A stretch of DNA of 64,000 nucleotides from Polyangiales bacterium (lineage in GTDB: Bacteria > Myxococcota_A > Polyangia > Polyangiales > Ga0077539), in assembly GCA_044229975.1 (NCBI GenBank), contig JBGARZ010000001.1, forward strand, positions 288,001-352,000. Reading direction: 5' to 3'. The translations under genes were made by a program, and so were the position numbers. Positions 11,977-34,639 of this stretch are shown here, piece by piece. Position 1 is the first letter of the stretch; every line of letters starts with the position of its first letter. The notes below the pieces were generated by a model. The model saw nothing but the letters and a program-made list of their open reading frames with translations. It did no database searches and was not told where the DNA came from.

Positions 11977-12098
11977 GGGAGTGGTCTCCGGGGACGTCGA
12001 GAGAAGCCCTGGACGCTACCCAACCGAAGGCCCCCATGGTGAGTTCGTTGCTCGCAGATTTTCGATGGTGTCCAATCGCACGCTGGACGGAGAAGTCG

Positions 12099-15000
12099 AT
12101 GACGCGATCACGGGGGAGTGTCGGGGGTTTCGGGTGGGTGGCGCTTCTCGCGGTCGCGTGCGTAGGCGGCGCAGCGCGGCGGCCGACGACGGGCGCGCTC
12201 TCCCCGGCGGAGCAGTTGCAAGCCTGGGAGCGCGGGTGCGCCGTCGGCGAGTCGGGCGACTGCCTGGCGCTCGGCGTGGCATACGCCGAGGGCGAAGGCG
12301 TGCGGGAGGACATGACCCGCGCGACGGCCCTCTTCCGCCGCGGCTGCGAGAGCGGAAACCTGCGGGCGTGCGCGCGGCTGGGGTCGATGTTCCAGGCGGG
12401 GCTCGTGGGCGGCGCGCGCGACGCGGCGATGGCGGAGACGCTGTACCGACGGGCGTGCGACGGCGGCGACACCTGGGGCTGCACCAACCTCGGGGCGATG
12501 CTGGTCGAGGGCGAAGACGTCCCGCGCGACCTCGTGCGCGGCTTCGCGCTCTACGAGCGGGCCTGCGACGGCGGTGACGGCGTCGCGTGCTCCAACCTCG
12601 CCAACAACTACCAGTCCGGGGAGGTCGTCGTGCGCGACGAGGCGCGGGCCCTCGGGTATTTCGAGCGGGCCTGCGCGGGCGACGGGTACGCGTCGTGTCG
12701 ATCGCTCGGGTGGCAGCACCTCGAAGGCCGCGGCATGACCGTCAACGTGCGCCGCGGCGTCGAGCTGCTGGAGCGCGCGTGCAGCCACGCCGTGCCCGAA
12801 GCCTGCACCGACCTCGGGTCGCTCTACCTCGACGGCCGCGTCGTCCCGCGCGACGAGGCCCTCGCGCGCCGATGGCTCCAGCGACGATGCGAGGTCGACC
12901 GCGCCAGCACCTGCGACGCGGCCGACCAGGTGCAGCGCGACGCCGAGGCGTTCGCCACCGCGCGCCAGCAGTGCGACGCCGGCCCGGCGACGGCGTGCGT
13001 GGCGCTCGGCATCGCGTACGTCCGCGGCGCGGGTACGGTCGTCGACGTGGCGCGGGCCGCCGAGATCCTCACGCGGGCCTGCGACGCGGGCGCGGTGGAG
13101 GCCTGCTCCGTACGAGCGGCGGCGCTCCACGACTCCGAAGCGCCCGGCGACCGCGCGACCGCGGTGCGCCTCTTCCAGCGGGCCTGCGACGGGGGTTGGA
13201 TCCCGGCCTGCAACGACCTCGGCGCGATGTACGACGCGGGCCGCGGCGTGCCGCGCGACTGGGTCCGCGCGATCGAGCTCTACCGCCACGTGTGCGACCG
13301 GGACGACGGCGCCGGGTGCGGCAACCTCGCGATCCATCTGGAGTCGGGCGAAGGCATCGCGCGCGACGACACGCAGGCCGCGCAGCTCCATCAGCGGGCC
13401 TGCCGGCTGGGGCAGTCGATCTCCTGCGCGCACCTCGGGCACATGCTCTTCGACGGCCGCGGCGTCACGCGCGACCTCGCGCAGGGCGTGCAGATGCTGG
13501 TGCGCGCGTGCGAGCTCGGGCACACCGCGACGTGCGATGGCCTCCGCGCGGTCACCGCCTCCCGCGCCTCGGCCGAGCGGGCCGCGCGCGCCTGCGAACG
13601 TCACGAGGCCCGCGGCTGCTACGACCTGGCGCAGCACCTCAGCGAGGGGCGCGGCATCGATCGCAACCCGGCGCGCGCGGCGGCGATGTTCCTGGTGGCC
13701 TGCGACGGGCGCTACCTCGCGGGCTGCAACGCGCTCGCGCGGATGTACCTGAGCGCGGAGGGCGTCGCGCGCGACTACGCAGGCGCGGCGGTGCTCGCGG
13801 GTCGCGCCTGCGACGGCGGGCACGCGCCGGCGTGCAGCACCCTGGGATGGATCCACTCGCGCGGGTACGGCGTGCCGCGCGACGAGGCGCGGGCGGCGAC
13901 GCTCTTTCGTCGGGCGTGCGACGGGCGCGACGCCGCGGGCTGCGAGGTGCTCGGGTGGATGTCGTCGCAGGGGCGCGGGATGCCGCGCGACGTCGTGCAG
14001 GCGACACGCTTCTACGGGCGGGCCTGCGAGCTGGGACACCGCGGGGGCTGCCTCTACCTGGGCTGGGCCTACGAGGTGGCGAGCGGCGTCGAGCGTGACG
14101 CCGCCCGTGCCGCGTCGCTCTACCGCCGCTCGTGTGAGGCGGGCGAAGCCGAGGCGTGCCGTCGCCTGGGCGGGTGCCTCGCGACCGGCTACGGGGTCGC
14201 GCAAAACGTCGCCGAGGCCCTGCGGCGCTACGAGCAGGCGTGTCGCGGCGGCGACGACGAAGGCTGCGTGAGCTGGGGCCTGTCGCTCGCCGTGGGCTTC
14301 GGCGGGCTGGAAGACCCGGCGCAGGCGATCGACCTGATGGGCGGCGCGTGCGACCGGGGAAACGCGGGCGCGTGCTTCAACACGGCCTCGCTCCTGGCGG
14401 GCGGGCGCGGCGCGGCGCGCGACGTCGCGAGGGCCGACGCGCGGTGGGCGCAGGCGGCGACCATCTACCGGCGCGAGTGCGACGGGGGCAACCGCGGCGC
14501 GAGCTGCGGCGAGCTGGGCAACATGCTTCGCCTCGGGCTGGGCGTCGATCGCGACGCGGCGCAGGCGCGAGACCTCCTCACGCGCGCCTGCACCACGCAT
14601 CCTGGGTACTGCATCGACCTCGCGGCGTCTCCCGCGGGCCAGCGAGACCCGCGGGCCGCGGGTTGGTTCGAGCGGGCGTGCGAGCAGAACGTCGCCGAAG
14701 GCTGCGTGCGCTTCGCCGAGCTGCTGGAGTCGGGCGTCGGGGTGACCCGTGACGCCGCGCGCGCCGTCGCCCTACGGCAGCGCGCCATCGAGATGCTGGA
14801 GGGCTCGCTGGAGACCTCCTTCGACGGCCACGTCGGGCTGGTGCTCGGTCGGCTGTACCTCGCCGGTCGCGGCGTCGCGCAGAACCCCACGCGCGCCGCG
14901 CTCGTGCTGCAAGGCGGGTGCGACCGCGGGTTGGGGGAGGCCTGCGGCGAGCTGTCACGGCTCTATGGCAGCGGCCTCGGCGTGACCCGCGACGCGGCGC

Positions 15001-15170
15001 GTGCGGCTTCGCTGCGAGCGGCGGCGTGTGCGTTGGGAGAGCTTCGGATGTGCCCGGCCGGGAGGCGGCCGAGGCCCGCGCGACCGACCACGACTCCGGC
15101 CCCGGCGGCGCCCCCGCGCGAGACCCCCGTGCTGGAGGTCCCGCTGCCCTGGGACGGCGCCATGACCTGA
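12099..15170 (+). CDS. Large secreted Sel1-like (Hcp-type, Cys-paired) repeat protein
   Basis: GGAG upstream of ATG 12099; signal with AVAC; more than 20 copies of the ~36-aa unit RACDGGxxxxCxxLGxxYxxGxGVxRD. Confidence 0.9.
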   Translation: MTRSRGSVGGFGWVALLAVACVGGAARRPTTGALSPAEQLQAWERGCAVGESGDCLALGVAYAEGEGVREDMTRATALFRRGCESGNLRACARLGSMFQAGLVGGARDAAMAETLYRRACDGGDTWGCTNLGAMLVEGEDVPRDLVRGFALYERACDGGDGVACSNLANNYQSGEVVVRDEARALGYFERACAGDGYASCRSLGWQHLEGRGMTVNVRRGVELLERACSHAVPEACTDLGSLYLDGRVVPRDEALARRWLQRRCEVDRASTCDAADQVQRDAEAFATARQQCDAGPATACVALGIAYVRGAGTVVDVARAAEILTRACDAGAVEACSVRAAALHDSEAPGDRATAVRLFQRACDGGWIPACNDLGAMYDAGRGVPRDWVRAIELYRHVCDRDDGAGCGNLAIHLESGEGIARDDTQAAQLHQRACRLGQSISCAHLGHMLFDGRGVTRDLAQGVQMLVRACELGHTATCDGLRAVTASRASAERAARACERHEARGCYDLAQHLSEGRGIDRNPARAAAMFLVACDGRYLAGCNALARMYLSAEGVARDYAGAAVLAGRACDGGHAPACSTLGWIHSRGYGVPRDEARAATLFRRACDGRDAAGCEVLGWMSSQGRGMPRDVVQATRFYGRACELGHRGGCLYLGWAYEVASGVERDAARAASLYRRSCEAGEAEACRRLGGCLATGYGVAQNVAEALRRYEQACRGGDDEGCVSWGLSLAVGFGGLEDPAQAIDLMGGACDRGNAGACFNTASLLAGGRGAARDVARADARWAQAATIYRRECDGGNRGASCGELGNMLRLGLGVDRDAAQARDLLTRACTTHPGYCIDLAASPAGQRDPRAAGWFERACEQNVAEGCVRFAELLESGVGVTRDAARAVALRQRAIEMLEGSLETSFDGHVGLVLGRLYLAGRGVAQNPTRAALVLQGGCDRGLGEACGELSRLYGSGLGVTRDAARAASLRAAACALGELRMCPAGRRPRPARPTTTPAPAAPPRETPVLEVPLPWDGAMT

Positions 15171-15177
15171 GGCGCGA

Positions 15178-16452
15178 TCAGCGCATCAGGACGACGCGGA
15201 TGCGCTGGTTGTACGTGTCGGCGATGAAGAGCCGGCCGCCGGTGTCGGTCTCGACGCCGTTGGGGCGATCGAGCAGGGCGAGCGTGGGAGAGCCGCCGTC
15301 GCCGTCGAAGCCGCGCATGCCGCAGCGGCCCGCGACGGTGCGGATGTTTCCGTCGGCGCCCACGGCGCGCACGCAGGAGTTCTGCGTGTCGGCGATGTAG
15401 ACGGTTCCGTCGGGGCCGACCTCGACGTCGGTGGGCTGGTTGAGCGTCGCCGCCGTGGCCGCGCCGCCGTCGCCCGTGGCGCCGACCATGCCCGTGCCCG
15501 CGAAGGTGGTGATCATGCCCGCGGTGGTGACCTTGCGGATGACGTTGTTGCCCGTGTCGGCGATGTAGAGGTTGCCGAGGCTGTCCATGTCGATGCGGCC
15601 CGCGGGGTTGGCCGCCTGACCGATGGGGTTGCGGAGCTGCGCCATCAGCGCCGGGCCGTTGTCCCCACTGAAGCCCGCCATGCCGTTGCCCACGACGGTG
15701 TTGATCATGCCGTTGCCGTCGACGCGGCGGATTCGCTGGTTGGCCTGGTCGGCGATGTACACGTCGCCCGTCGGCGCGATCACGATGCCCACCGGGAGGT
15801 CGAGGATCGCGTTGAGGGCCGGGCCGCCGTCGCCGCCGAAGCTGCGGCCGCCGGTGCCGCAGATGTCCTCGATCATCGAGTCGGCCATGCCGACGTTGGT
15901 CACGCGCTTGATGAGGCTGTTGTGCCACGCGGCGATGATCATCCGCCCCTGCGGGTCGAAGGCGATGTTGGTCGGGTGGTTGAGGCGGAAGCGCAGCGCG
16001 GGCGACGCCATGCGCGGAGTGCCCGGAGGGATGGGCGGGTCGACGCCGTCGGAGAGCTCACCCGTGCCGACCACCGTACGAACGGTGCCGTCGGAGGCCT
16101 GTTCGCGGACGACGTGGTTGTTCCAGTCGAGGAAGTAGAGTCGGCCGTTGGGGCCGAGGGTCATGTCCTGCGGGAGGTACGTGCGCGACGCGGTGCCCGC
16201 GACGTTGTTGGCGCCGACTCCTGCCTCACCGTTGCCGATGATGGTGCAGATGGTGCCCGCGCGCGGCGTGCACTGGGTGTTGGTGACCGGCGGCGGCGTG
16301 TCGAGGGTGGCGCCGCAGCTGCTGGCGAGCGCCTGGTCTTCGGTGAGCACGTCGGCGCAGGGGTCGTTGGTGCAGCTCACGGCGACGACCGCCAGGGTGA
16401 GCAGGGAGAGGTGGTGGTTTCGCGCGCGCATCGTTCGCTCCATGAGACTCAT
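15178..16452 (-). CDS. NHL-repeat (beta-propeller) lipoprotein
   Basis: AVSC lipobox; repeats such as GDGGPA..A.L..P..I....G.LYIADTGNNVIRKV; ATGA overlap with the upstream gene. Confidence 0.88.
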   Translation of the reverse strand: MSLMERTMRARNHHLSLLTLAVVAVSCTNDPCADVLTEDQALASSCGATLDTPPPVTNTQCTPRAGTICTIIGNGEAGVGANNVAGTASRTYLPQDMTLGPNGRLYFLDWNNHVVREQASDGTVRTVVGTGELSDGVDPPIPPGTPRMASPALRFRLNHPTNIAFDPQGRMIIAAWHNSLIKRVTNVGMADSMIEDICGTGGRSFGGDGGPALNAILDLPVGIVIAPTGDVYIADQANQRIRRVDGNGMINTVVGNGMAGFSGDNGPALMAQLRNPIGQAANPAGRIDMDSLGNLYIADTGNNVIRKVTTAGMITTFAGTGMVGATGDGGAATAATLNQPTDVEVGPDGTVYIADTQNSCVRAVGADGNIRTVAGRCGMRGFDGDGGSPTLALLDRPNGVETDTGGRLFIADTYNQRIRVVLMR

Positions 16453-18593
16453 CGCCAGACCCGGCGCACGCGGTCGTTGAGCGTGTCGCAGATGAAGAGG
16501 TTGCCCTGGGCATCAAACGCGATGCCGTGCGGGCGGTAGAGGGAGGCCTGGAGTGCCGGGCCGCGGTCGCCGCCGTAGCCGCGCTGGCCGTTGCCCGCGA
16601 CGGTGGTGATGACGTTGGTGGTGAGGTCCACCGCGCGGATGCGGTGGTTGTTGGTGTCGGCGATGTAGAGCCGACCGTCGGGGCCGAACTCGATGTCCTG
16701 CGGCGAGTTGAGCTGCGCCATGAGGGCGGGGCCGTCGTCGCCCGCGTAGCCGAAGGTGCCGGTGCCCACCAGGGTGGTGATCATCCCGGTGGCAAGCTCG
16801 ACGCGCCGGATGCGGTGGTTGCCGGTGTCCGAGATGTAGAGGTTGCGCTCCTCGCGATCGAGCGCGATGCCGCCCTCGGGCTCGGGGTTCTCACCCGTCT
16901 GGAGGTTGAACGACGCCATCATCGCCGGGCCGTTGTCGCCGCCGTAGCGGCGCATGCCGTCGCCCGCGATGGTGGTGACCATCCCGCCGGCGATGTCGAT
17001 GCGACGCACGCGGACGTTGCCCTGGTCGAGCAGGTACATCGTGTTGCCGTCGCGGGTCATCGCGCCCTTGGAGGGTTGCTTGATGCGGGCCATCGCGAAG
17101 GGTCCGTCGATCCAGCCGGGGCCGCGGCCGAGCGGGACGAAGGTCATGCCCGTGGCCGGATCCCAGCGGCGGATCTTGTGGTTGTGCCAGGCCACCACGA
17201 ACAGCCGCCCGTCGGGGTGGAACATCAAATCGGTCGGGTGGTTGAGCGCCACGGTGTCGCCGGGCGCGCCGGGCTCGGTGAGGTCGGTGGGCATCGGCGG
17301 GCCGTCGCCAGGCTCCGCCGTCCCCATGATGGTCTCGAAGGTGTTGTTGGCCGTGACGCGGCGGATGCGGTGGTTGTTCCAGTCGAGGATGATGGGTCGC
17401 CCGTCGGGGGCGAACTCCATGTCCATCGGCCAGTACATCATCGACTCGCGGAGGGGGCGGTTGTCGCCGTTGAAGCCCGCGACGCCGGCGCCCGCGTACG
17501 TGCAGATGTTGCCCGCCGTCGGGTCGCAGCGGGTGATGGACTCCGGCGTCACGATGGTCGTGCGGGGAATCGCCTCGCCGAAGCGGTAGATGACACCGCG
17601 GGTGAGCGCGCTGGTCTGGAGGTCGCCGCCGACGGCCCACACGGCGCCCGTCGGGTCGACCCAGACGGCGTGGAAGTCGAGCTGCGTGCGCGGCGCGCGA
17701 GCGACCTCACGCCACGCCCCCGAGCGACGCTGGAAGAGCGCGCCCGAGTTGCCCACCGCGAGGGGCGAACCCTCCGCCGGGATGTACACACCGCTCAGCC
17801 GCGGGGCCGTCTCGACGGTGACCGCGCGCCACGGGCTGGTGCCCTCGGACTCCAGGATGATGCCCGACACATTGCCGCCCACGGCGTAGCGCTGCGTGCC
17901 GCGCTGATAGACCGTGAAGAGCGGGCCGCGGCCGCCCTCGGGGACGGCCTGCTGCTCCCACGCGGTACCGTTCCAGTGGATCAACGCGCCGTTGGTGCCG
18001 CAGACGGTGACGTCGTTGGCGGCGGTGCCGTTGACCTTGTACCAGACGGTGGTGGCGTTCATCCCGCCGGGCGCGGCCTGTGCCGACCACGCGGTGCCGT
18101 CGAAGTGCCAGAGCGCGCCGCCGCTGCTGCCGTTGGGGTCACCGCCCACCGCCCACACGTCGTTGGCGCTGGCGCCCCACACGCCGAAGAGCGTCGGGGT
18201 GCTGGCGGGCGTGGTCATGCGCTCGGTGGCGCCGGTGGCCGGGTTGTGGCGCAGCACGGTGCCGTCGCTGCCGACCATGAACACCAGCGTCGGCGAGATG
18301 CCCTGCACCCACCAGAGGCTGCCGTGGCCGAGCCGGGTGTCGATGCGCGTCCAGCGTGTGCCATCGAAGTGCAACGCTTGCGGACCTGTGCCGTCGTTGG
18401 CGTCAGCGCCGACGGCGTAGACGTCCTGCGCGGTGGTGCCCCAGATGGAGAGCATCGCGCCCGGCAGGTCGGCCTGCACCGCCTGCCATTGGAAGCTCGG
18501 CGGCATCTCATCGCTGCAACCGACGGCGGACGCACCGAGCGCCGCCACGACGAGCGTCAACACGCCCGGCCTCATTCCTGATCGCAGTGTCAT
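16449..18593 (-). CDS. Lipoprotein with N-terminal Trp-rich propeller repeats and C-terminal NHL repeats
   Basis: GGAGG then ATG 18593; AVGC lipobox; repeats of VWGxSxxDVWAVG...HFDGxxW followed by NHL blades (LYIADTNNHRIR). Confidence 0.88.
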   Translation of the reverse strand: MTLRSGMRPGVLTLVVAALGASAVGCSDEMPPSFQWQAVQADLPGAMLSIWGTTAQDVYAVGADANDGTGPQALHFDGTRWTRIDTRLGHGSLWWVQGISPTLVFMVGSDGTVLRHNPATGATERMTTPASTPTLFGVWGASANDVWAVGGDPNGSSGGALWHFDGTAWSAQAAPGGMNATTVWYKVNGTAANDVTVCGTNGALIHWNGTAWEQQAVPEGGRGPLFTVYQRGTQRYAVGGNVSGIILESEGTSPWRAVTVETAPRLSGVYIPAEGSPLAVGNSGALFQRRSGAWREVARAPRTQLDFHAVWVDPTGAVWAVGGDLQTSALTRGVIYRFGEAIPRTTIVTPESITRCDPTAGNICTYAGAGVAGFNGDNRPLRESMMYWPMDMEFAPDGRPIILDWNNHRIRRVTANNTFETIMGTAEPGDGPPMPTDLTEPGAPGDTVALNHPTDLMFHPDGRLFVVAWHNHKIRRWDPATGMTFVPLGRGPGWIDGPFAMARIKQPSKGAMTRDGNTMYLLDQGNVRVRRIDIAGGMVTTIAGDGMRRYGGDNGPAMMASFNLQTGENPEPEGGIALDREERNLYISDTGNHRIRRVELATGMITTLVGTGTFGYAGDDGPALMAQLNSPQDIEFGPDGRLYIADTNNHRIRAVDLTTNVITTVAGNGQRGYGGDRGPALQASLYRPHGIAFDAQGNLFICDTLNDRVRRVWR

Positions 18594-18632
18594 CGACGTT
18601 CCTCCATGGGATGGGTCACGAGGCGATGCGGA

Positions 18633-18647
18633 GCACGGCCCGTTCCA
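18633..18647 (-). promoter_or_regulatory. Putative sigma54 (-24/-12) promoter
   Basis: TGGAAC-GGGCC-GTGC, i.e. GG-N10-GC spacing, about 40 nt upstream of ATG 18593. Confidence 0.4.
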
Positions 18648-18720
18648 GCTCAACGTTGGTACCTGATGGGAGGTGCTTCGGGGAAGCCGCGGCACTGACC
18701 GGTGATAGCTTCGCGGCGCG

Positions 18721-19452
18721 ATGTTCTGCCGGGTGTTGCTGGCCTGCGGGTGGTGCGTGTTCTTCGGGTGTTCGAAGGACGCGGTGGTGGAGGTCGACGC
18801 GGGCCCGCTGCGGGTCGACCGCGGAGTGACGCAGGACTCCACGGTCGACCTCGGAAGCGAGCCGATGGACGCCGCGACGCTCGCGGATGGTCCGGCGGCG
18901 GACGTGCCCGTGGCGGCGGACGTGGCCGTCGACCGAGGGGCACCCAGGGACGTCGGGCCGCCGCGCACGCTGGCCTGCGGGGCGTTGGCGCGCACGGAAG
19001 ACCCGACGAGCGACACCGTGCTGCTGGGCAACGAAGCGGGCGGCCAGTTCACGCTGGTCATCGATGTGCCGGTGGTGAACGTCGGGATCATCGCGCGCGG
19101 GCCCGTCGACCTCGCGCTGGCGGGTGACTTCGTGGACCGCGTGCGCGTGGTGCACATCGTCGGCGAGGGGTCGATGGCGTCGACACTGTATGCGCCGGCT
19201 GCGGTGCGCTTCGAGCGAGCGGGAACGCCCGCGGCGCCGGTGGCGGACGTCACGGGCAACGCGACGATGACCTGCGCGAGCGACTGCGAGACGGGTCGCG
19301 TACCGGGCGACCGCGGGTGCAACTCGGCGACGCAGGTGCGAACGTATTTTCAGCGGTTTTTCGGGGAGAGCCGGCGGATGGTGCATCTGCAGACGAGCAC
19401 CTTCGACGGGCTGTTTGTGTTCGTCGGGCGCGGCGGGTGCTGCCTGCCGTAG
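18721..19452 (+). CDS. Hypothetical lipoprotein
   Basis: 243 aa; FFGC signal; Asp/Ala-rich linker; Cys-containing C-terminal domain; TGaTAGCTT 9 nt upstream of the ATG. Confidence 0.6.
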   Translation: MFCRVLLACGWCVFFGCSKDAVVEVDAGPLRVDRGVTQDSTVDLGSEPMDAATLADGPAADVPVAADVAVDRGAPRDVGPPRTLACGALARTEDPTSDTVLLGNEAGGQFTLVIDVPVVNVGIIARGPVDLALAGDFVDRVRVVHIVGEGSMASTLYAPAAVRFERAGTPAAPVADVTGNATMTCASDCETGRVPGDRGCNSATQVRTYFQRFFGESRRMVHLQTSTFDGLFVFVGRGGCCLP

Positions 19453-19460
19453 CGGGCGGG

Positions 19461-19907
19461 TCAGCCGGTCTGCTTTACGGGCTCCGGATCGAGCAACGCG
19501 TTGAGCGACCGGCCCGCTTGTGGCGTTGCGAGGACTTCCTTGAGGGCCCCCACAAGTTCGGCCGAGTCTGATGCGAGTTGAAACCCGCCGTCGTAACGAA
19601 CCTTGACCGGGTAGCCAGCCGGGTCGGGCTCGAACTCGCAGAGCATCGTGGGCGCACGGCCTTGGCGTTCGAAGACGAGGGCTTGATAATGCCGCGTAGT
19701 CGATGCCTGTCTCACGTTGCCCGGAGGAACATACATCGTGATTACTGGTGGCCAGATGCGTTCGACCACACCGACCTCGCCGCCCGAGAGCAGTCGGATC
19801 TGAGCGTCGAGATCATCGACGATGGTCTTGATCTCGCGGAGGCGTGCGTCTGCATCGAGCGCTGCCTGTCTCCCCTGCTTCGCGGCCTCCAAGAAATTCT
19901 CACCCAT
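19461..19907 (-). CDS. Hypothetical 148-aa protein coupled to the EEP nuclease
   Basis: 8-nt overlap with the upstream stop; GAGGGA SD-like sequence inside the upstream gene; lower GC than the flanks. Confidence 0.7.
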   Translation of the reverse strand: MGENFLEAAKQGRQAALDADARLREIKTIVDDLDAQIRLLSGGEVGVVERIWPPVITMYVPPGNVRQASTTRHYQALVFERQGRAPTMLCEFEPDPAGYPVKVRYDGGFQLASDSAELVGALKEVLATPQAGRSLNALLDPEPVKQTG

Positions 19908-20820
19908 CGTCTTCCCTCACTTCGGCAGCAGCTTGGTGAATGTACTCCAGCGTGACGACCAGCGGGAGGTGGTCGAGTTGCTCGTCCAGATACGCTCCAC
20001 GGCGACCGCGAAGGGAGTCGCCATGCCATGGAGCAGTCTCATCCTCGCGGAGTGTCCATCCCACTCCCTCGACGAGCGACGCCGACGCCAACACCTGATC
20101 GTAGGTTCGCCAACGGCTCTCGACGCCGCTTCGATAGAAGTGGGTCCCCGAGGATGTGGCACCGCGCAGGTGACCATCGAAAGGCACCCTCGCCCCGAGC
20201 CAACGCCAGGCTGCGTTGTAGAGCAGGTCCGAACGCTTGCGCACCTGGTCGATGTCCCTGGTTCCGTTGAGCAACGCCATGGGCGACTGAAAGGGTTCGG
20301 TGTTGAAGTCTCCCGCGATGAGAACGTGGTCGAACCGACGCTGCGATCCCACCTCAAGCGCGGCGCCCAGCATGATGGCAGCCTGACGCTGAAGGCGTCG
20401 CACATGGTCCTGGTCTCCCATCCCAATGGCCGGCCAGTGGCACAGTCCCAGTCCGAGGAGGTCCTTCGTCGGCAGACTCAACTCGACGACAAGCCCCGCG
20501 CAGATCTTGTGACGGCCGACCTCCGCCGGGACGAGTCGAGCTTGCTCCGCACTCACGACGCGGGTATCGAAGGCGATCACCAGATCGTGTGACACCTCGC
20601 CGCGCTGTCGCGGCACGAGAACGTCCCACTCGCCGTCCAGCCTCAGCCATCCCATCAGCATCCGCAGGGATGCGGCCGTCATCTCGCACAGGCCAATCAC
20701 CGAGCACTGCTCGTCGTCGATCAGCGCCCGCACGACTCTCGCGACCCCCGCGATCTGCGCCTCGGTCAGCTCGGTCCCACCGACGAACCCGGTGTTCCAC
20801 CACCCGAAGCGGAGCTTCAT
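19900..20820 (-). CDS. Endonuclease/exonuclease/phosphatase (EEP, ExoIII/DNase I fold) family protein
   Basis: WWNT, IGLCE, CHWP, IAGDFNTEPF, GTHFY, TYDQVL, LDHLP: full EEP catalytic set; TATGAT 6 nt upstream of ATG 20820. Confidence 0.85.
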   Translation of the reverse strand: MKLRFGWWNTGFVGGTELTEAQIAGVARVVRALIDDEQCSVIGLCEMTAASLRMLMGWLRLDGEWDVLVPRQRGEVSHDLVIAFDTRVVSAEQARLVPAEVGRHKICAGLVVELSLPTKDLLGLGLCHWPAIGMGDQDHVRRLQRQAAIMLGAALEVGSQRRFDHVLIAGDFNTEPFQSPMALLNGTRDIDQVRKRSDLLYNAAWRWLGARVPFDGHLRGATSSGTHFYRSGVESRWRTYDQVLASASLVEGVGWTLREDETAPWHGDSLRGRRGAYLDEQLDHLPLVVTLEYIHQAAAEVREDDG

Positions 20821-20905
20821 CTCGCGATCATACGGAAGCTCATCAACGAGACCCAGGCCGCAACCAGTCAACCTTCACGATGCGTGGCCGTCGTCCGGTG
20901 GCGGT

Positions 20906-23900
20906 TCAGCGCACGGCGCGCTCGTCCGCGATCTCCTCCAGTTCGACGGTGCACAGCCCGCTGCGCTCGGCCTTCACGTTGACCACCTTGAGCGCGGTGC
21001 CGGGCGCGAGCAGGTACTCCTCCTCGCCCGAAAACGCCGAGTACGCCCGCACGCCCACCGCCCGCGCCGGCTTCACCGCAAACAATGTCCGCTTGCCCTT
21101 CGCCCCCAGGAACGAGTGCGCCACCGACAGCTTCGCCGTGCACGACGACACGCCCCACCACGTCACCGTGCGGCCCGCCGGGTACTGCCCGCGCAGGTCC
21201 ATCGCGACGCCGCGCCACAAGGTCCCATCGAAGCGCTCGATCTTCTCCAGCGCCGCGAGCAGCAGCCGCAGGTACGGCCGAAACGCGTCGACGTTCGCGC
21301 GGTCGGGGTCGCGCAGCGCGGCGTTGACCTGCCGGTAGAAGCCCGAGTCGCAGGTGTACAGGTACAGCGCCGCCACCTCGTGCTCGTCGAGCGCTCCGGC
21401 GCCCGCGGCCAGCTTCCGACGCGCGAAGTCCGACGACTGCTGCGCGAAGTGACCGAGGCCCTTGATCTGCGCCGCAAGCGGGGCGACCGCATCGGCGAAG
21501 GCCACCGCTGCCATCGCGCGCACACCCGTCACCTCGGGCAGCGCCTGCTGCGGCTCCTCCTTCACCTCCTGGAGACGCTCCAGGTAGAGCTTGTGGAGGT
21601 CCATGGTGCGGGCGATGAAGTCACCCATGCGGTCGGCCTCGCCGGTCGACGATGTGGCCACGGCGGACTTGTTCCAGCCGACGCTCGGGAGCCAGTCGAT
21701 GGTCTCCATCGCGAGGCCCTTGAGGGCGGCGTTGACGGCGCCGAAGTGATCGCCGTCGCAGAAGATGTCGCCCTGCGCTGCGGGGTTGGGGTGGTCGATG
21801 TGACGCACCTTCACCGCGGGGTACTTCCGCTCCACGCGCTGCACCACCGACTTCAGCGCCTTCGCCGCCGTGCCCCACCACGCGAACACCACGCCCTTGT
21901 GCGCGGCATCACCGCTCCCCTGCTTGGCCTTGAGAATCTCCTCGACCACCTTCTCCACCACGGGTCGCCAGAACGCCGTGTGCCGCGCGATGGCGTCGGT
22001 GTCGCCGCGGCCCCCATCCGCACTCGCGGTGAGCGCCGCGTTGAGCAGCAGCACCCCCTGCGTCAGCATCGCCTGGAACCACTCCGGCGGCTGCACGGCC
22101 TTCTTCTTGTCGAGCAGCGCGCGGATGTCCGCGATGGGCGTCGCCTTGGGGATGCCGTACTTCGACATCACCGCCGCCTTGATGATGCAGCGGATGCTCG
22201 TGACCCTCCCGAACTGGCTGTCCTTCCAGTGGTTGAAGGTGTTGTCGAACATCGCGATGCCCGTCGCCGACTCCACCCGCGGATACGGGTTCTGCCCGAA
22301 CACCACGACCTTCCACTTCTCGGGGGGATTGGGCTTCAGCGCCTGGAACGTCAGCTCGCGCACCGGCACCACGTCGGGCCCACGCTTCGGACCGATGAAG
22401 TCCGCCGCGTCGCGCTGCGCCTCGATCACCGGCTTGAGCAGCGGCAGCCACGCCTCGCCGCCGCCCTCGAAGAGCTCGTCGAGCTGCAACCCCGACGACA
22501 CGCCCGGCGCGCTAGCCGCCTTCGCGAGGCGCTTGAGCGACCCGATCACCCGGTAGAAGGTCCCATGCGCGCTGAGCTGAACGTCGTCGGCGACGTAGCG
22601 CACGCCCGCCTCGCGCACCGCCCTCGGAACGAGCACCGGAACCGCTCCGTCGACGCGCTCACCATGCGCCGTCACGCGCAGCTTTCCGCCCTCGTGCTCG
22701 CAGGTGAGCAGCACGCCCGACCCGACCTCGGTGACCTCCGGCAGCGACTTCGCCGACCCGCCGCCCGCGCCGCGCGCGCTCAGGTCGGCGCGGCTGCGGG
22801 AGCGCCCCTGGTACGACTGATCACGCAGGATCTTCCGCGCGCTCCGGTCGAGGCCGCCGCCCTCCACGGCGTTGGCGAAGTGTTCGAGCTGCGAGACCTC
22901 CTCGGCGATCTCGTACTCCTCGTCCATCGCCCGCGCGCGCTGGTCGGCCGCCTCGCGTCGCAGCACCGCCGCAGCCTCCGCGCGCTCGCCCGCGTCCGAA
23001 CGTCGCACCGCGCGCTCCTTCGCGAGCGCCACGCGCAGGCGGCTCACGGCGCGCATCACGTTGGGGTCGGGCCGTTCGTCCCCGGCCGCCGTCACGGCCG
23101 CGCGCACGACGGCGTGCCCGGTGACTTCTCCCCGCTTCGCCTGCGCGGCCACGGGGTCGTACTCGTACTCGACGTCGAGGAGGTCGAAGTCGCCCGCCTC
23201 GTCGGGCGCGTGCACGGTGAGCGTGAGGGCGAGGTGGCGGTCTTCGCCGCCGTACACGTCACCTACGGGAACGGTCACCGATCCGTCGCTCTGCGGCACA
23301 AGCCCGCGCGCATCGAGGAGCTCGGTGATGGTCACGCCGCGGCGCGGGCGCAGCGTGACGAAGAGCCCCTGCGCTGCGACCGAGGTGATGCTCTCGCCCT
23401 CGATCATGAACACCTGCGTCGCGTCTTCGGGCGTCTCGATGAAGTAGAAGTTTCCGCGCCCGGCCTCGGCCATGCCGATGAGCAGGTCTTCGTTGAAGTC
23501 GAGGCCGAAGCCGAGGGTCGTCGTGACCACGCCGCGCACGGCTCGCGTCGCGGCCTGGGCGATGATGTCAGGCGTCGACGTGACGCCCACGTTGGCCTGC
23601 CCGTCGGTGAGGAGCAGCACGCGCTTGAGGTCGTCGGCCGCGTCGGGCCGCGAGAGCACGAGGTCGCACCCGCGGTCCCACCCGCCGTGCAGCGCCGTCG
23701 CGCCGCCGGGCCGCACCGCGCGGATCTTCTTGATGATGGCCTCCGGGTCGTCGACCTTCGTAGGCGCGACCAGCGTCTCGATGCGGTTGTCGTAGACCAC
23801 CACGGAGAGCGTGTCGGCGGGCGAGAGCTGCCGCACCAGCAGCCCCGCGGCCTCGGTGGCCTGCTTCAACGGCGCACCCGACATCGAGCCCGAGCGGTCG

Positions 23901-24040
23901 ATCACCACGCTCACCGACAGCGGCCGCCGACCGGGCCGTCGGGACGCGGCGTAGTCGCCGTGGAAGGTCAGGAGGAGGTCGACCGTGATGGTCTGGCCCG
24001 CGGGCAGCGCGGGGCGCGTGAGTCCGTACGAGAGCTCCAT
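20906..24040 (-). CDS. Multidomain fusion: VWA, unknown domain, uracil-DNA glycosylase-like domain, ADP-ribosyltransferase (R-S-E type)
   Basis: [25 protein letters not shown]-like [60 protein letters not shown]; start ATG 24040 follows TCGACA-18-TACACC. Confidence 0.88.
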
Positions 24041-24177
24041 GCACGCTGGTGTATCGAAGCCCGGCGCACGCTGTCGAGAGGAGGCGTCGAGGGAGGTGTC
24101 AGGCAATGACCAGTTGATGGAGTACCGTGCGGCGATGACGAGAAGGTCCGCCACGTCACGATGACCCCGGTCGGTGC

Positions 24178-31460: not shown

Positions 31461-34400
31461 TCACTTCTTCGAGCGACGACGGCGGAGCGCGGGGATCGCC
31501 ACCGCGAGGGCGCCGAGCGCCAGCAGACCCAGGCCGTTGGCGTCGTTGGAGCCCGGGTTCACCGTGCACGAGAAGCCGTCGCCCTGGTAGCTGTACCGCG
31601 CGGCCACGGCGCCGCCGTCGGTGGCCACGCCCGCGTCACCGCGCGCCACGCACATCCCGATGGAGGTGTTGCACACCGGCAGGCCCGGCATCGTGCAGTT
31701 GGCGTCCGCGCTGGCCGACGGGAGCATCGCGTTGATGCGCGCCGCGCCATCTTCGCGCGGGTCGTTGTCGGGCACGCAGTCGTTGTCCGAGTCGCGGTCG
31801 AGGAAGTCCGGTCCGTCGCCGGTGGCCGTGCCGCCGTCGGTGTTGGCGGGCGTCATCGGGTTCGCGCCGGCTTCGTCGCGGTCGAGGTCCATGTCCCCAT
31901 CCGAGTCGAGGTCGCGGTACGACGGCAGGCCGTCCATGTCGGCATCATCGTCGGGCGTGGTGTCGAGCGTGCGCTCCACCGCCGTCGGGATGGTGTCGTT
32001 GTCGTCGTCCGGATCGAGCCAGTCCGGGTTGTCCATCATGTCCGTGTTGCGCGGAGACATGAACCCGCCGCTGCCCACTTCATCGCGGGTCGGCACGGTG
32101 TCGTTGTCGTCGTCGGGGTCACGGGCGTCGATCATCCCGTCCATGTCCGAGTCGCGCGGGGTGGTCACGCCGCCCGGCCCGATCTCGTCGCCGTCGCGGA
32201 TGGAGTCGCCGTCCGTGTCGGGGTTGTCCGGGTTGGTCCCGATGCGGGTCTCGTCGGCGTCGGGGATGCCGTCGCCGTCGCGGTCGCCGGGCGCGCCGCA
32301 GGTGCCCGAGATGCGGTTGCAGACCATGCCCGCGCCGCAGTTGGTGTCCGGGTTGACCGACGGGAGCATGGCGTTGGTGCGGGCGGCGCCGTCCTCACGC
32401 GGGTCGTTGTCCGTGATGCAGTCGTTGTCCGAGTCGCGGTCGAGGAAGTCCGGACCGTCGGTGCTCCCGGTGGCCATGTCCGTGTTGACCGGCGTCGCGG
32501 GCGCGGGGCCCGCCTCGTCGCGGTCGAGGTCCATGTCACCGTCCGAGTCGAGGTCGCGGTACGACGGCAGGCCGTCGGTGTCGAAGTCGTCGTCCGGCGT
32601 CATGTCGAGCATGCGCTCGACGCGCGTCGGGATGGTGTCGTTGTCGTCGTCCGGATCGAGCCAGTCCGGGTTGTCCATCATGTCGGTGTTGCGCGGCGTC
32701 GCGAAGCCGCCCGGGCCCAGCTCGTCGCGGGTCGGCACGGTGTCGTTGTCGTCGTCCGGATCGAGCGGGTCGATCATCCCGTCCATGTCCGAGTCGCGCG
32801 GGGTGGTCACGCCGCCCGGCCCGAGCTCGTCGCCGTCGCGGATGGAGTCGCCGTCCGTGTCGGGGTTGTCCGGGTTGGTCCCGATGCGGGTCTCATCCAT
32901 GTCCGGGATGCCGTCGCCGTCGCGATCGCCGCCGCCCGGGCCGGTGCCGCAGGTGCCCGTCATCCGGTTGCACACCATGCCGGTGCCGCAGTTGGTGTTC
33001 GGGTCGAGCGAGGGGCGCGCCGGGTCGATGCGCGCGGTGCCGTCCTCGCGGGCGTCGCTGTCGGGCAGGCAGTCGTTGTCCGAGTCGCGGTCGAGGAAGT
33101 CGGGGCCGTCCGTGCTGCCCGTCGACGCGTCGCTGTTGGCGGGCGTCGCCGGCGAGCTGCCGGCCTCGACCGAGTCGAGGTCCATGTCCCCGTCGGAGTC
33201 GAGGTCGCGGTACGAGGGCGTACCGTCCATGTCGAAGTCGCGCCCGGCGGACATGTCGCGCGCCTGCTCGACGGCCGTCGGGATGGTGTCGTTGTCGTCG
33301 TCCGGGTCGAGCCAGTCGGGGTTGTCGACCATGTCGGTGTTGCGCGGCGACGCGAAGCCGCCGGTGCCCAGCTCGTCGCGGGTCGGGACGGTGTCGTTGT
33401 CGTCGTCGGGGTCGAGGTAGTCCGGGAAGGTGTCCGTGTCGCTGTTGCGCGGGCTCATGCCGCCGCCCGGCCCGAGCTCGTTGACCGTCGGGATGGTGTC
33501 GCCGTCGTCGTCGGGGTCACGGAAGTTGGGAACGCCGTCCATGTCCGTGTCGACCGTCGGCCCCTCGGTGAGGTCGGGGATGGTGTCCATGTCCGTGTCG
33601 ACGGTGGCGCACAGCATCGGGCTCACGGGCCGGAAGGAGATGCCGTCGATGGCGAAGTCGTTGCCCTGATCGGTGGGCTCGTTGTCCACCACCTGGAAGC
33701 TCGCCATGCCCGAGGCGGTGGGGCGATAGATGCCGCCGACGAAGTCCCAGAACATCTGGACGCCGTCCGAGGCGCGCAGCCGGAGCTGCGGCGTCACCGA
33801 GGTGCCGTTGACCGTCACCACGAGGAGGGCGGTGCGCTGCAGCGGACGGGCCGGGTTGAGCCCGCCCCAGTCGGCCACGTTGAACTGCACCACGTAGTCG
33901 CGCCCGGCCTCGACGAGCACGTTGGCCCGGTAGGCCGTGCGGACGCCGATGCCGTTGAAGAGCGCCGCGTAGCCGTCGCCGTTGGCGTCGGCCCAGGTCA
34001 CGGCGCCGACGGTGCGGAACACGCCGTTCCACCCCGACGGGTTGTTGGTGACGGTGAAGTTGCCCTCCGGGCCGCCGCCGCCGTAGCCGTCCACGAAGTT
34101 GCGCGAGTCGTCGTAGGTGTAGTCCGACGTGAAGCCCATGCGACCCATGATGAAGTCGCCGTTGGGCGCCAGGTTGGTCGTCGTGTCACGGCAGCCGTAG
34201 CCGAACTCCGTCACACAGGCCGGGCTGCAACCGTCGCCCGCACGCGTGTTGCCGTCGTCGCAGTCCTCACGGAAGCGACCGGCGCCCGCGCGGATCGAGT
34301 CACCACAGACCGCCACGCACGCGGAGCCCAGGGTCGCGCACGAGAAGCCCGGCTCGGTGATGCAGGTGGCGCCGCAGCCGTCGCCGCCTGCGGTGTTGCC

Positions 34401-34535
34401 GTCATCGCAGGTCTCACCCGCGTTCAGGATGCTGTTGCCGCAGCCAATCGGCTGGGCCTGCAGGACAGTGGGCGAGGCCACCGCCGCAATCACTCCTGCG
34501 AGCCCCCAGTGCCATCGGTGCAATCGTCGTCTCAT
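31461..34535 (-). CDS. Surface protein: Myxococcus Cys-rich repeats, a beta-sandwich domain, TSP3-like Ca-binding repeats and a MYXO-CTERM-like tail
   Basis: Signal ending AQ; two CGN/D..ExCDDGN...DGCS units; many DxDxDG.PD/DDDNDT motifs; C-terminal GFSC..helix-RRRRSKK. Confidence 0.9.
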   Translation of the reverse strand: MRRRLHRWHWGLAGVIAAVASPTVLQAQPIGCGNSILNAGETCDDGNTAGGDGCGATCITEPGFSCATLGSACVAVCGDSIRAGAGRFREDCDDGNTRAGDGCSPACVTEFGYGCRDTTTNLAPNGDFIMGRMGFTSDYTYDDSRNFVDGYGGGGPEGNFTVTNNPSGWNGVFRTVGAVTWADANGDGYAALFNGIGVRTAYRANVLVEAGRDYVVQFNVADWGGLNPARPLQRTALLVVTVNGTSVTPQLRLRASDGVQMFWDFVGGIYRPTASGMASFQVVDNEPTDQGNDFAIDGISFRPVSPMLCATVDTDMDTIPDLTEGPTVDTDMDGVPNFRDPDDDGDTIPTVNELGPGGGMSPRNSDTDTFPDYLDPDDDNDTVPTRDELGTGGFASPRNTDMVDNPDWLDPDDDNDTIPTAVEQARDMSAGRDFDMDGTPSYRDLDSDGDMDLDSVEAGSSPATPANSDASTGSTDGPDFLDRDSDNDCLPDSDAREDGTARIDPARPSLDPNTNCGTGMVCNRMTGTCGTGPGGGDRDGDGIPDMDETRIGTNPDNPDTDGDSIRDGDELGPGGVTTPRDSDMDGMIDPLDPDDDNDTVPTRDELGPGGFATPRNTDMMDNPDWLDPDDDNDTIPTRVERMLDMTPDDDFDTDGLPSYRDLDSDGDMDLDRDEAGPAPATPVNTDMATGSTDGPDFLDRDSDNDCITDNDPREDGAARTNAMLPSVNPDTNCGAGMVCNRISGTCGAPGDRDGDGIPDADETRIGTNPDNPDTDGDSIRDGDEIGPGGVTTPRDSDMDGMIDARDPDDDNDTVPTRDEVGSGGFMSPRNTDMMDNPDWLDPDDDNDTIPTAVERTLDTTPDDDADMDGLPSYRDLDSDGDMDLDRDEAGANPMTPANTDGGTATGDGPDFLDRDSDNDCVPDNDPREDGAARINAMLPSASADANCTMPGLPVCNTSIGMCVARGDAGVATDGGAVAARYSYQGDGFSCTVNPGSNDANGLGLLALGALAVAIPALRRRRSKK
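31650..33570 (-). repeat. Three intragenic tandem copies of a ~642-nt (214-aa) TSP3/Cys unit
   Basis: DRDGDGIPD..ETRIGTNPDNPDTDGDSIRDGDE starts at 32927 and at 32285 (period 642 nt); a more diverged copy lies upstream; ends approximate. Confidence 0.85.
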
Positions 34536-34639
34536 CACGCTTGAAGCCTCCACAAAGCGATGTTGCGCTGCCCTCTACGAGAACACAACGCGCTTCTCCC
34601 TCGCCAGTGACCGGCATTTGCTGCCGAGAATTTGGAGTT

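Follow-up and report, generated by a model that had tools for sequence, protein, structure and literature searches.

PARP1 and bacterial WGR-PARP proteins, with their macrodomain erasers, combine a damage sensor, a helical element, an ADP-ribosyltransferase (ART) and a macrodomain. DarT and DarG also form a pair of an ART and a macrodomain. The same logic is proposed here for a gene in a 64,000-nucleotide stretch of a Polyangiales bacterium genome (contig JBGARZ010000001.1, positions 288,001 to 352,000; hereafter the window). This gene encodes a VWA domain, a uracil-DNA glycosylase (UDG) fold of the UNG type and an ART, and proteins with the last two parts are called UNG-ART here. The sensor of the window protein would be the UNG fold, unlike the zinc fingers of PARP1 or the WGR domain of WGR-PARP, and its ART belongs to the R-S-E (cholera-toxin-like) class, unlike the PARP class. 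The ART class also differs from that of DarT, and the UNG-ART and macrodomain genes are divergent or fused. The Streptomyces macrodomain SCO6735 has a RecA-NDp promoter, and its endogenous transferase is described as unknown (PMC9411070); no link between UNG-ART and SCO6735 is claimed.

We consider it somewhat probable that UNG-ART is a non-cutting lesion sensor gating a reversible ADP-ribosylation signal. This reading is supported by the fold, three fixed pocket changes, intact ART motifs, pairing or fusion with a macrodomain, and a RecA-NDp motif in actinobacterial loci. Further support comes from other degenerate members, which are fused to zf-PARP/FHA/PBZ, WWE, SAP, kinase and RING domains.

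The UNG fold and its pocket residues

The best PDB sequence match of the UNG domain is 5x3g, the UNG of Nitratifractor salsuginis (E 1e-13), and a profile search gave E 3e-35. An AlphaFold model of residues 559-1082 (121-row alignment; residue numbers throughout are those of the 1082-aa form starting at GTG 24154) has a pLDDT of 92.2 and a pTM of 0.80. It matches 5x3g with Z 21.0 and a root mean square deviation of 2.7 A over 230 aligned residues, which identifies the UDG alpha/beta fold, and family 1 UNG structures with Z of about 18-20. A Pfam scan of the window protein returned VWA (82-247) and ART PF01129 (913-1078) and no UDG. The NCBIfam ung model (TIGR00628) scored 63 bits, about one third of its cut-off of 185.75. 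All UDG entries among the listed sequence and structure matches were family 1, with no MUG/TDG chain.

The Nitratifractor UNG (5x3g/5x3h), the top match in both sequence and structure, shares with the window domain YPRxESA after motif 1 and a helical insert after the PPS position. ATS and VTS, respectively, stand at that position, and both proteins have a non-canonical motif 2 (EHPYNHTF in 5x3g). The window domain thus carries the marks of this subfamily (YPRxxSA after motif 1, helical insert, no PLS wedge loop). The Nitratifractor UNG keeps Asp, Phe and His where the window domain has Asn, Met and Asn, and it stands alone, whereas the window domain is fused to an ART. It is reportedly active and Ugi-resistant. 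GQD-type Nitratifractor-like UNGs with a shortened motif 2 (HPxx-xxF; P0157, P0170, P0171, P0187, P0218, P0235 and others) form a broad, little annotated group in protists and bacteria. The window domain has the fold, GQxPY, GVLLLN and C-terminal IDW of family 1 UNG (E. coli Ung, human UNG), but Asp64, His187, Phe77, Leu191 and the PPS prolines are all replaced. It resembles the family 2 enzymes MUG and TDG in that motif 1 has Asn and motif 2 lacks His (PMC5387724), but differs in its family-1 scaffold with Tyr66, and this likeness would be convergent.

Residues were compared among relatives found in a search of representative proteins (150 listed of 760 found), of which 68 passed a coverage filter. 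These proteins, the query and 15 locus-derived rows made up an 84-row quick tree. Three truncated rows (P0143, P0144, P0174) and two with long branches (P0264, P0268) were dropped. The remaining 79 rows were grouped by this tree, whose alignment included the motif columns and not 5x3g, into an ART clade (35), GQD-type proteins (29, mostly short and stand-alone), canonical UNGs (3), zf-PARP/PBZ proteins (9) and kinase/RING proteins (3). The ART group is one side of a branch with SH-aLRT 99 (29 rows).

The UNG pocket is formed by Q63, Y66, F77, N123 and H187 (PMC5387724). The window domain keeps the Gln63 equivalent, and the earlier note was right that the pocket Tyr (Tyr624) and the GVLLLN Asn (Asn705) are retained. 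Asn123 in UNG contacts uracil N3/O4. The codon positions that the earlier note gave for the GQNPY Asn and the His are correct, VTS is present as described, and all lie in one open reading frame (ORF) (Table 1). Column 622, the site of the catalytic Asp, holds N21 S8 A4 M1 T1 in the ART clade (Asp in 0/35) versus D27 E2 in GQD-type rows (n=29). A further pocket change, absent from the earlier note, lies at the uracil-stacking Phe77, which corresponds to Met635 when counted from motif 1. Phe occupies this column in 29/29 GQD-type and 3/3 canonical rows and in 0/35 ART-clade rows.

In motif 2, the aligned sequences place Asn790 at His187, Ala792 at Ser189 and Gln794 at Leu191. This register is given by the joint alignment and by an hhalign profile-profile alignment that sets DHPNPAAQG opposite GAHPSPLSV. 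Column 790 holds His in 29/29 GQD-type and 3/3 canonical rows and N32/H2/G1 in the ART clade (n=35), and the Pro that follows is invariant in 79/79 rows. Column 788 holds His in only 24/35 ART-clade rows and in no other row; GQD-type proteins have A/S/N/Q/G/T there. In the model, read at the level of secondary structure, the strand ends at His788, in line with this register. A single ungapped pairwise alignment to one canonical UNG (3tr7) speaks against it and yields the register of the earlier note, with His788 as the catalytic residue. Since Asn790, not His788, occupies the His187 position, Asp and His are both replaced, and the claim that the catalytic His is retained does not hold. The structure model, a check proposed in the earlier note, confirms the UDG fold.

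Leu191 of UNG fills the gap left by base flipping (PMC3989344). Its supposed change to Ala was an error of register, and the wedge position holds long residues (Q, M, R, Y) in 30/35 ART-clade rows. The wedge loop is already absent in 5x3g and in 23/29 GQD-type relatives, so the earlier argument that loss of the Leu speaks against a Ugi decoy needs a different basis. VTS, read before as a sign of inactivity, is a subfamily trait. Near the expected DNA face, Ser653, Arg655 and Arg626 are kept in 32, 34 and 34 of 35 ART-clade rows, respectively.

A search with UNG-ART returned 1174 proteins among 7999 scored candidates, giving at least 1174 homologues. The best 120 are mostly actinomycete proteins of about 538 aa with 65-77% identity, and Asn622, Met635, His788 and NPAAQGD are invariant in 120/120. 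The fixation of N and A raised in the earlier note is thus borne out. Both AAC and AAT are used for Asn622 and Asn790 in 78 coding sequences. Among actinobacterial copies, the Nei-Gojobori method, which is rough in high-GC DNA, gives a median pairwise dN/dS (nonsynonymous to synonymous substitution ratio) of 0.20 in the UNG fold, compared with 0.25 in the ART and 0.31 in the linker. Among 24 diverse full-length homologues, 116/265 columns (44%) of the UNG fold are invariant versus 55/166 (33%) of the ART. The pocket changes are therefore fixed and not decay, as 120/120 homologues share them at a dN/dS of about 0.2, and purifying selection still acts on the domain. In two homologues (L007:4448-7575 and G133:C917), a frameshift apparently breaks the gene close to where the UNG fold begins.

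None of the features of an active family 1 UNG (GQDPY Asp, motif 2 His, full pocket with Phe77) is present. Human D145N and H268L leave 0.04% and 0.32% activity, respectively (PMC1919486). The drift among N, S, A, M and T at column 622 fits lost catalysis better than a new catalytic Asn. Because Asp, His and Phe are lost together on a family-1 scaffold with drift at 622, robust glycosylase turnover by the window UNG fold appears unlikely. A canonical ung gene (GQDPY/PPS/HPSPLS) is found in the genome of the window (L004) and in 5/5 other carriers tested, so the housekeeping role is already covered. The earlier proposal of a conserved domain that probably binds without cutting is supported and is strengthened by loss of the His, although the evidence drawn from VTS and the Leu falls away.

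The ART, its macrodomain partner and the promoter motif

The C-terminal part of the model matches ARTs (6drh, Z 18.6; 1gxy, Z 18.3), PF01129 is above its cut-off, and Arg, an STS-type Ser and ExE place it in the R-S-E (ARTC) class. Among the 24 diverse homologues, Arg981, Ser1004, Glu1044 and Glu1046 are kept in 24, 24, 22 and 24, respectively. The catalytic motifs are intact, and NAD-dependent transfer is predicted. A phmmer search of the ART domain against the PDB gave no match, though profile and fold searches did. The arginine ARTs Tre1 (6drh/6dre), Vis and ART2.2 have the same R-S-ExE motifs and fold; the window protein differs in that it has no hydrophobic segment suggesting export. No conserved secretion gene or ARH immunity gene was seen among the clustered flanks of 80 loci. 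The linker helix between the two domains is kept from bacteria to protists (F846 24/24, H854 23/24, R860 23/24) and is a candidate coupling or auto-inhibitory element.

The UNG-ART core was found in actinomycetes, myxobacteria, planctomycetes and protists. In the best 80 of 173 genomic loci, 66 of them actinobacterial, a divergent macrodomain gene (PF01661) lies beside UNG-ART in 67 (65 actinobacterial and 2 planctomycete). Among the neighbour clusters listed, no other occurs in more than 9/80 loci, the flanks being clustered and not annotated. Among 121 Streptomycetaceae genomes (centre included), UNG-ART occurs in 27 and the macrodomain in 28. All 27 UNG-ART genomes carry both, and the genes are adjacent in 26, with the odd cases at contig ends. 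Macrodomain, UNG fold and ART form one chain (Macro-UNG-ART) in 87 of the 120 best among 291 long homologues. A VWA domain is found in 27 of the same 120; it is accessory and absent from the actinobacterial form. By sequence the macrodomain is nearer to YmdB/MacroD types, weakly so (E 5e-4 to 4e-3). A complex prediction for one UNG-ART and macrodomain pair (L017) scored 0.00 and is counted neither way. One metatranscriptome gave matches (share 0.08; short contigs mostly 90-99% alike) that are not informative on expression.

A motif of the form TGTCR-N11-TAnnnT lies in the intergenic DNA of 59/65 actinobacterial loci. It faces the macrodomain in 52 loci, 48 of them at 58-67 nt upstream. The pattern was chosen after three loci had been viewed and with the RecA-NDp motif in mind; 6 matches occur in 1.3 Mb of flanks, and 0.1% of shuffles match. 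At the unconstrained positions 6-8 of the macrodomain-facing matches, G48, T41 and G43 of 52 are found. They read GTG, in agreement with the published consensus tTGTCRgtg-8nt-TannnT (PMC5656591). PafBC binds the RecA-NDp promoter, a promoter type also present in other actinobacteria (PMC8223512). In three genomes, 71-116 such sites were counted per genome, versus 24-41 for a reversed control; in G153, one site precedes the canonical ung match by about 75 nt. Most actinobacterial UNG-ART/macrodomain loci thus carry a predicted PafBC/RecA-NDp promoter. The ART fusion, the macrodomain partner and this DNA-damage promoter were all absent from the earlier note.

In the order of the window, UNG-ART is present in 14/151 genomes, all 14 among the 25 with a macrodomain orthologue, and 14/14 carriers are free of stops. 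The UNG-fold query found no match in five genomes of the same genus. In the myxobacterium of the window, this orthologue lies away from the UNG-ART gene, in a WGR-PARP operon; it follows a WGR-PARP_reg-PARP gene in G000, G114 and one G016 copy. The macrodomain family thus pairs with two different sensor-bearing ARTs, and it may serve the window protein.

These PARP genes also stand in longer operons. In one (G000:C38:251943-260758; L103:3944-12759), the genes for WGR-PARP_reg-PARP and the macrodomain orthologue are followed by those for a HEAT-like protein of 844 aa, a SWIM-finger protein and a reverse transcriptase. The order is similar in G114 (L104), and a PARP-macrodomain pair is found in G016 (L108). 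PARP may be coupled to a reverse-transcriptase system in these operons. At another G114 locus (L098; G114:C1:8117739-8121530), a canonical ung gene lies directly 3' of the UNG-ART gene. A second UNG-ART paralogue class (L101, L102; P0138, P0199), about 54% identical, is found in several myxobacteria; some of its members have the His back at the catalytic position (HWHPA), with the Asp still absent.

Eukaryotic relatives were named from 20 of 150 representatives, and fusion domains were taken from 67 scanned proteins. ART-fused members occur in Noctiluca, Paulinella, Amoebophrya and Flectonema. In Thecamonas, a degenerate UNG fold is fused to a protein kinase. Further fusions, in other proteins scanned, involve WWE, SAP and SAM domains. 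P0159, P0164, P0184 and P0281 join a degenerate UNG fold to a protein kinase (Thecamonas) or a RING finger; in P0281, the UNG fold occurs twice in tandem, together with a SAP domain. The dictyostelid proteins P0201, P0210, P0231, P0236, P0252 and P0269 contain a PARP-type zinc finger, a degenerate UNG fold, FHA and PBZ. The original PBZ paper is said to list a Dictyostelium UNG with a PBZ domain. Across the ART, zf-PARP and kinase groups, the Asp is absent in all and the His is present in only 2/47 rows. Catalysis may have been lost once or repeatedly in the three groups, either course being compatible with two quick trees.

Proposed mechanism and alternative explanations

DNA damage would induce the UNG-ART and macrodomain pair. 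The UNG fold, without its catalytic residues, would bind damaged DNA, likely at a flipped-out uracil-like base or an abasic site. The conserved linker helix would relay lesion binding and switch on the fused ART by allosteric coupling, and the partner macrodomain would likely remove the ADP-ribose mark. The VWA domain of the window protein likely docks to a partner.

A wider proposal, held tentatively and judged less probable than the sensor reading itself, is that bacteria and protists have a second, PARP-independent system of damage ADP-ribosylation. A pseudo-glycosylase would read uracil or abasic lesions and activate a cholera-toxin-class ART. The acceptor would be macrodomain-reversible (lesion DNA or an acidic residue) despite ExE, and the same UNG subfamily would serve as a dead sensor in eukaryotic PARP-zinc-finger/PBZ proteins and kinases.

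Several observations weigh against the sensor reading. Family 2 enzymes are active with an Asn in motif 1 and a motif 2 that lacks His (PMC5387724), so an N/N pocket is not necessarily inactive. With the stacking Phe gone, uracil is a doubtful ligand, since which the uracil reader of the earlier note is less certain than stated there. An ExE motif usually marks ARTs that modify arginine (PMC8120803). ARH/DraG enzymes take ADP-ribose off arginine, and macrodomains act on acidic residues, phosphates and some bases (PMC7050489); TARG1 removes uracil-N3 ADP-ribose (bioRxiv 10.64898/2026.03.31.715305). The chemistry of writer and eraser is therefore unexplained. The acceptor may be something other than arginine; alternatively, the macrodomain may serve as a reader of the mark or remove free ADP-ribose. 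The damage motif faces UNG-ART in only 29/65 loci. It is seen only in actinobacteria: neither the window gene nor 12 other non-actinobacterial loci have it upstream. In myxobacteria the macrodomain sits with the PARP gene, so that co-occurrence there is not independent support, and the related genomes in the counts above are not independent observations. The patchy spread (27/121 Streptomycetaceae, 14/151 of the window's order) also fits a defence gene.

Among the alternatives, a slow but active glycosylase of changed specificity survives best, though it seems rather unlikely. Asn622 would position water as in MUG/TDG, and the enzyme would remove uracil, xanthine, another lesion or an ADP-ribosylated base and stay on the abasic product, while the ART marks the site or itself. 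The family 2 precedent favours it, as does the fixation of Asn622 and Asn790 in bacterial members with both codons in use. In E. coli MUG, motif 2 opens with Asn. SMUG1, with Asn at the first site, retains 26-29% of its activity when the His is removed (PMC1919486). Against this, position 622 is S, A, M or T in 14/35 ART-clade rows, the scaffold is that of family 1, in which the D-to-N change alone leaves 0.04% activity, and the stacking Phe is also gone.

An anti-phage or conflict system is unlikely. Here the UNG fold would detect uracil-rich or modified phage DNA or bait UNG inhibitors, the ART would arrest the cell, and the macrodomain would guard against leaky activity. The patchy presence in soil bacteria and microbe-eating protists, the toxin-like ART fold and the VWA fusion are in its favour, and ART-macrodomain pairs can be toxin-antitoxin systems, of which PMC8120803 names DarT/DarG. 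However, PADLOC 2.0 (library 2023) matched 0 families for 4 proteins, and no defence-island pattern is apparent in the clustered flanks. No close copy was found in 50,697 phage records, which gave 41 distant matches, those listed being about 25% identical. Of the 4 close copies in plasmid records, two lie on records as long as 5.7 and 11.9 Mb. High conservation, with 66-77% identity from one phylum to another, native codon use, and divergent genes with separate damage-type promoters, unlike a toxin-antitoxin operon, also count against it. Damage sensing and defence are not mutually exclusive.

A pocket adapted to a small ligand (free uracil, dUMP, nicotinamide or another NAD-derived product) is improbable, as is a domain that acts as a general clamp on DNA or as a scaffold; neither would read out lesions. 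With the Phe77 and His187 contacts lost, only Gln, Tyr and Asn remain, and even the Tyr decays in dictyostelid zf-PARP fusions. The residues kept near the expected DNA face, the DNA-damage promoter and the long residues at the wedge position argue against this alternative. Private decay of a redundant ung copy, for which the canonical ung in the same genome might speak, is ruled out for practical purposes by the 120/120 conservation, the at least 1174 homologues, the dN/dS of 0.20 and the absence of stops in 14/14 order-level carriers.

Features of the window gene and significance

The coordinates are collected in Table 1. The gene likely starts at ATG 24040, as the database protein P0280 is 1044 aa long and begins there (MELSYG), and as a promoter-like pair ends just before this codon. 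The transcript is likely leaderless from this putative promoter, and comparable pair spacing is found by eye upstream of L007, L008, L009, L010, L033 and L035. The GC content at third codon positions is 0.94. The small all-beta domain is possibly OB-like in the model: its best fold match has Z 4.7, many OB-fold nucleic-acid binders are among the weak matches, and ESM Atlas gave no usable match.

Table 1. Features of the UNG-ART gene and its product in the window
Feature	Position (nt)	Strand	Remarks
ORF for VWA–UNG-fold–ART protein	20906-24154	minus	Longest form, from GTG 24154; 1082 aa
Gene for VWA, small beta-barrel, UNG fold, helical linker and ART	20906-24040	minus	1044 aa from ATG 24040
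Promoter-like pair TCGACA - 18 nt - TACACC	24048-24077	minus	Ends 7 nt before ATG 24040; found by eye
VWA domain, residues 82-247	23414-23911	minus	DxSGS motif; PF00092, E 1e-13
Small all-beta domain between VWA part and UNG fold	22499-22777	minus	Model pLDDT 88
UNG-fold domain, residues 559-823	21686-22480	minus	Nitratifractor-UNG-like subfamily by sequence and structure matches
Motif 1, GQNPY	22283-22297	minus	Asn622 (AAC, 22289-22291) at catalytic Asp64
Tyr624 (Tyr66)	22283-22285	minus	Kept in 33/35 ART-clade rows
Met635 (Phe77 position)	22250-22252	minus	M25 L5 H5 of 35 ART-clade rows
VTS at PPS loop	22196-22204	minus	Ser kept
Asn705 (Asn123)	22040-22042	minus	Kept in 34/35 ART-clade rows
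Motif 2, HPNPAAQ	21773-21793	minus	HPNPAA at 21776-21793; His788 codon 21791-21793
Asn790 (His187 position)	21785-21787	minus	Joint and profile-profile alignments
Gln794 (Leu191 wedge position)	21773-21775	minus	Joint and profile-profile alignments
Linker helix, residues 838-866	21557-21643	minus	Helix in model; conserved residues
ART domain, R-S-E class	20921-21418	minus	PF01129, E 6e-11
ART motifs, R-S-ExE	Arg981 21212-21214; Ser1004 21143-21145; Glu1044 21023-21025; Glu1046 21017-21019	minus	

Downstream, at 19461-20871 (minus strand), lie an EEP-family nuclease/phosphatase gene and a 148-aa ORF with GC below the surroundings. A pair paralogous to these two is found at G000:C32:406804-408184, where the EEP match is in two pieces. 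The EEP gene was rejected as a base excision repair partner, as it had no match in 108 other loci. The regions 12036-19322 and 31461-34553 encode a 1044-aa Sel1-repeat protein, two NHL-repeat proteins and a 1030-aa Asp-rich repeat protein, which are ordinary for myxobacteria.

UNG-ART proteins appear in databases under automatic names only, and no paper describing a UDG/UNG-ART fusion was found in the literature searched, most subscription papers lying outside the search. Word searches gave no 'uracil' or 'glycosylase' in PMC8120803, PMC4245714 and bioRxiv 10.64898/2026.10.17.759577. 'UNG' and 'uracil' do not occur in PMC9411070, and in PMC11377751 the matches were confined to reference entries. 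An earlier mention in a comparative-genomics review is possible. A damage-linked ART with a macrodomain is already known, whereas an R-S-E ART whose sensor is a disarmed UNG appears to be a new form of it.

For DNA-damage ADP-ribosylation in bacteria, erasers are known but few writers. UNG-ART, present in about a fifth of the Streptomycetaceae genomes sampled, is a candidate writer that would bring along its lesion sensor, an eraser and a damage promoter. If the reading is true, UNG-ART would show a naturally occurring pseudo-glycosylase in a signalling role and would be the convergent counterpart to PARP1. Should the domain bind uracil or abasic sites, leave them uncut and signal them by ADP-ribosylation, it may also be of use as a lesion probe.

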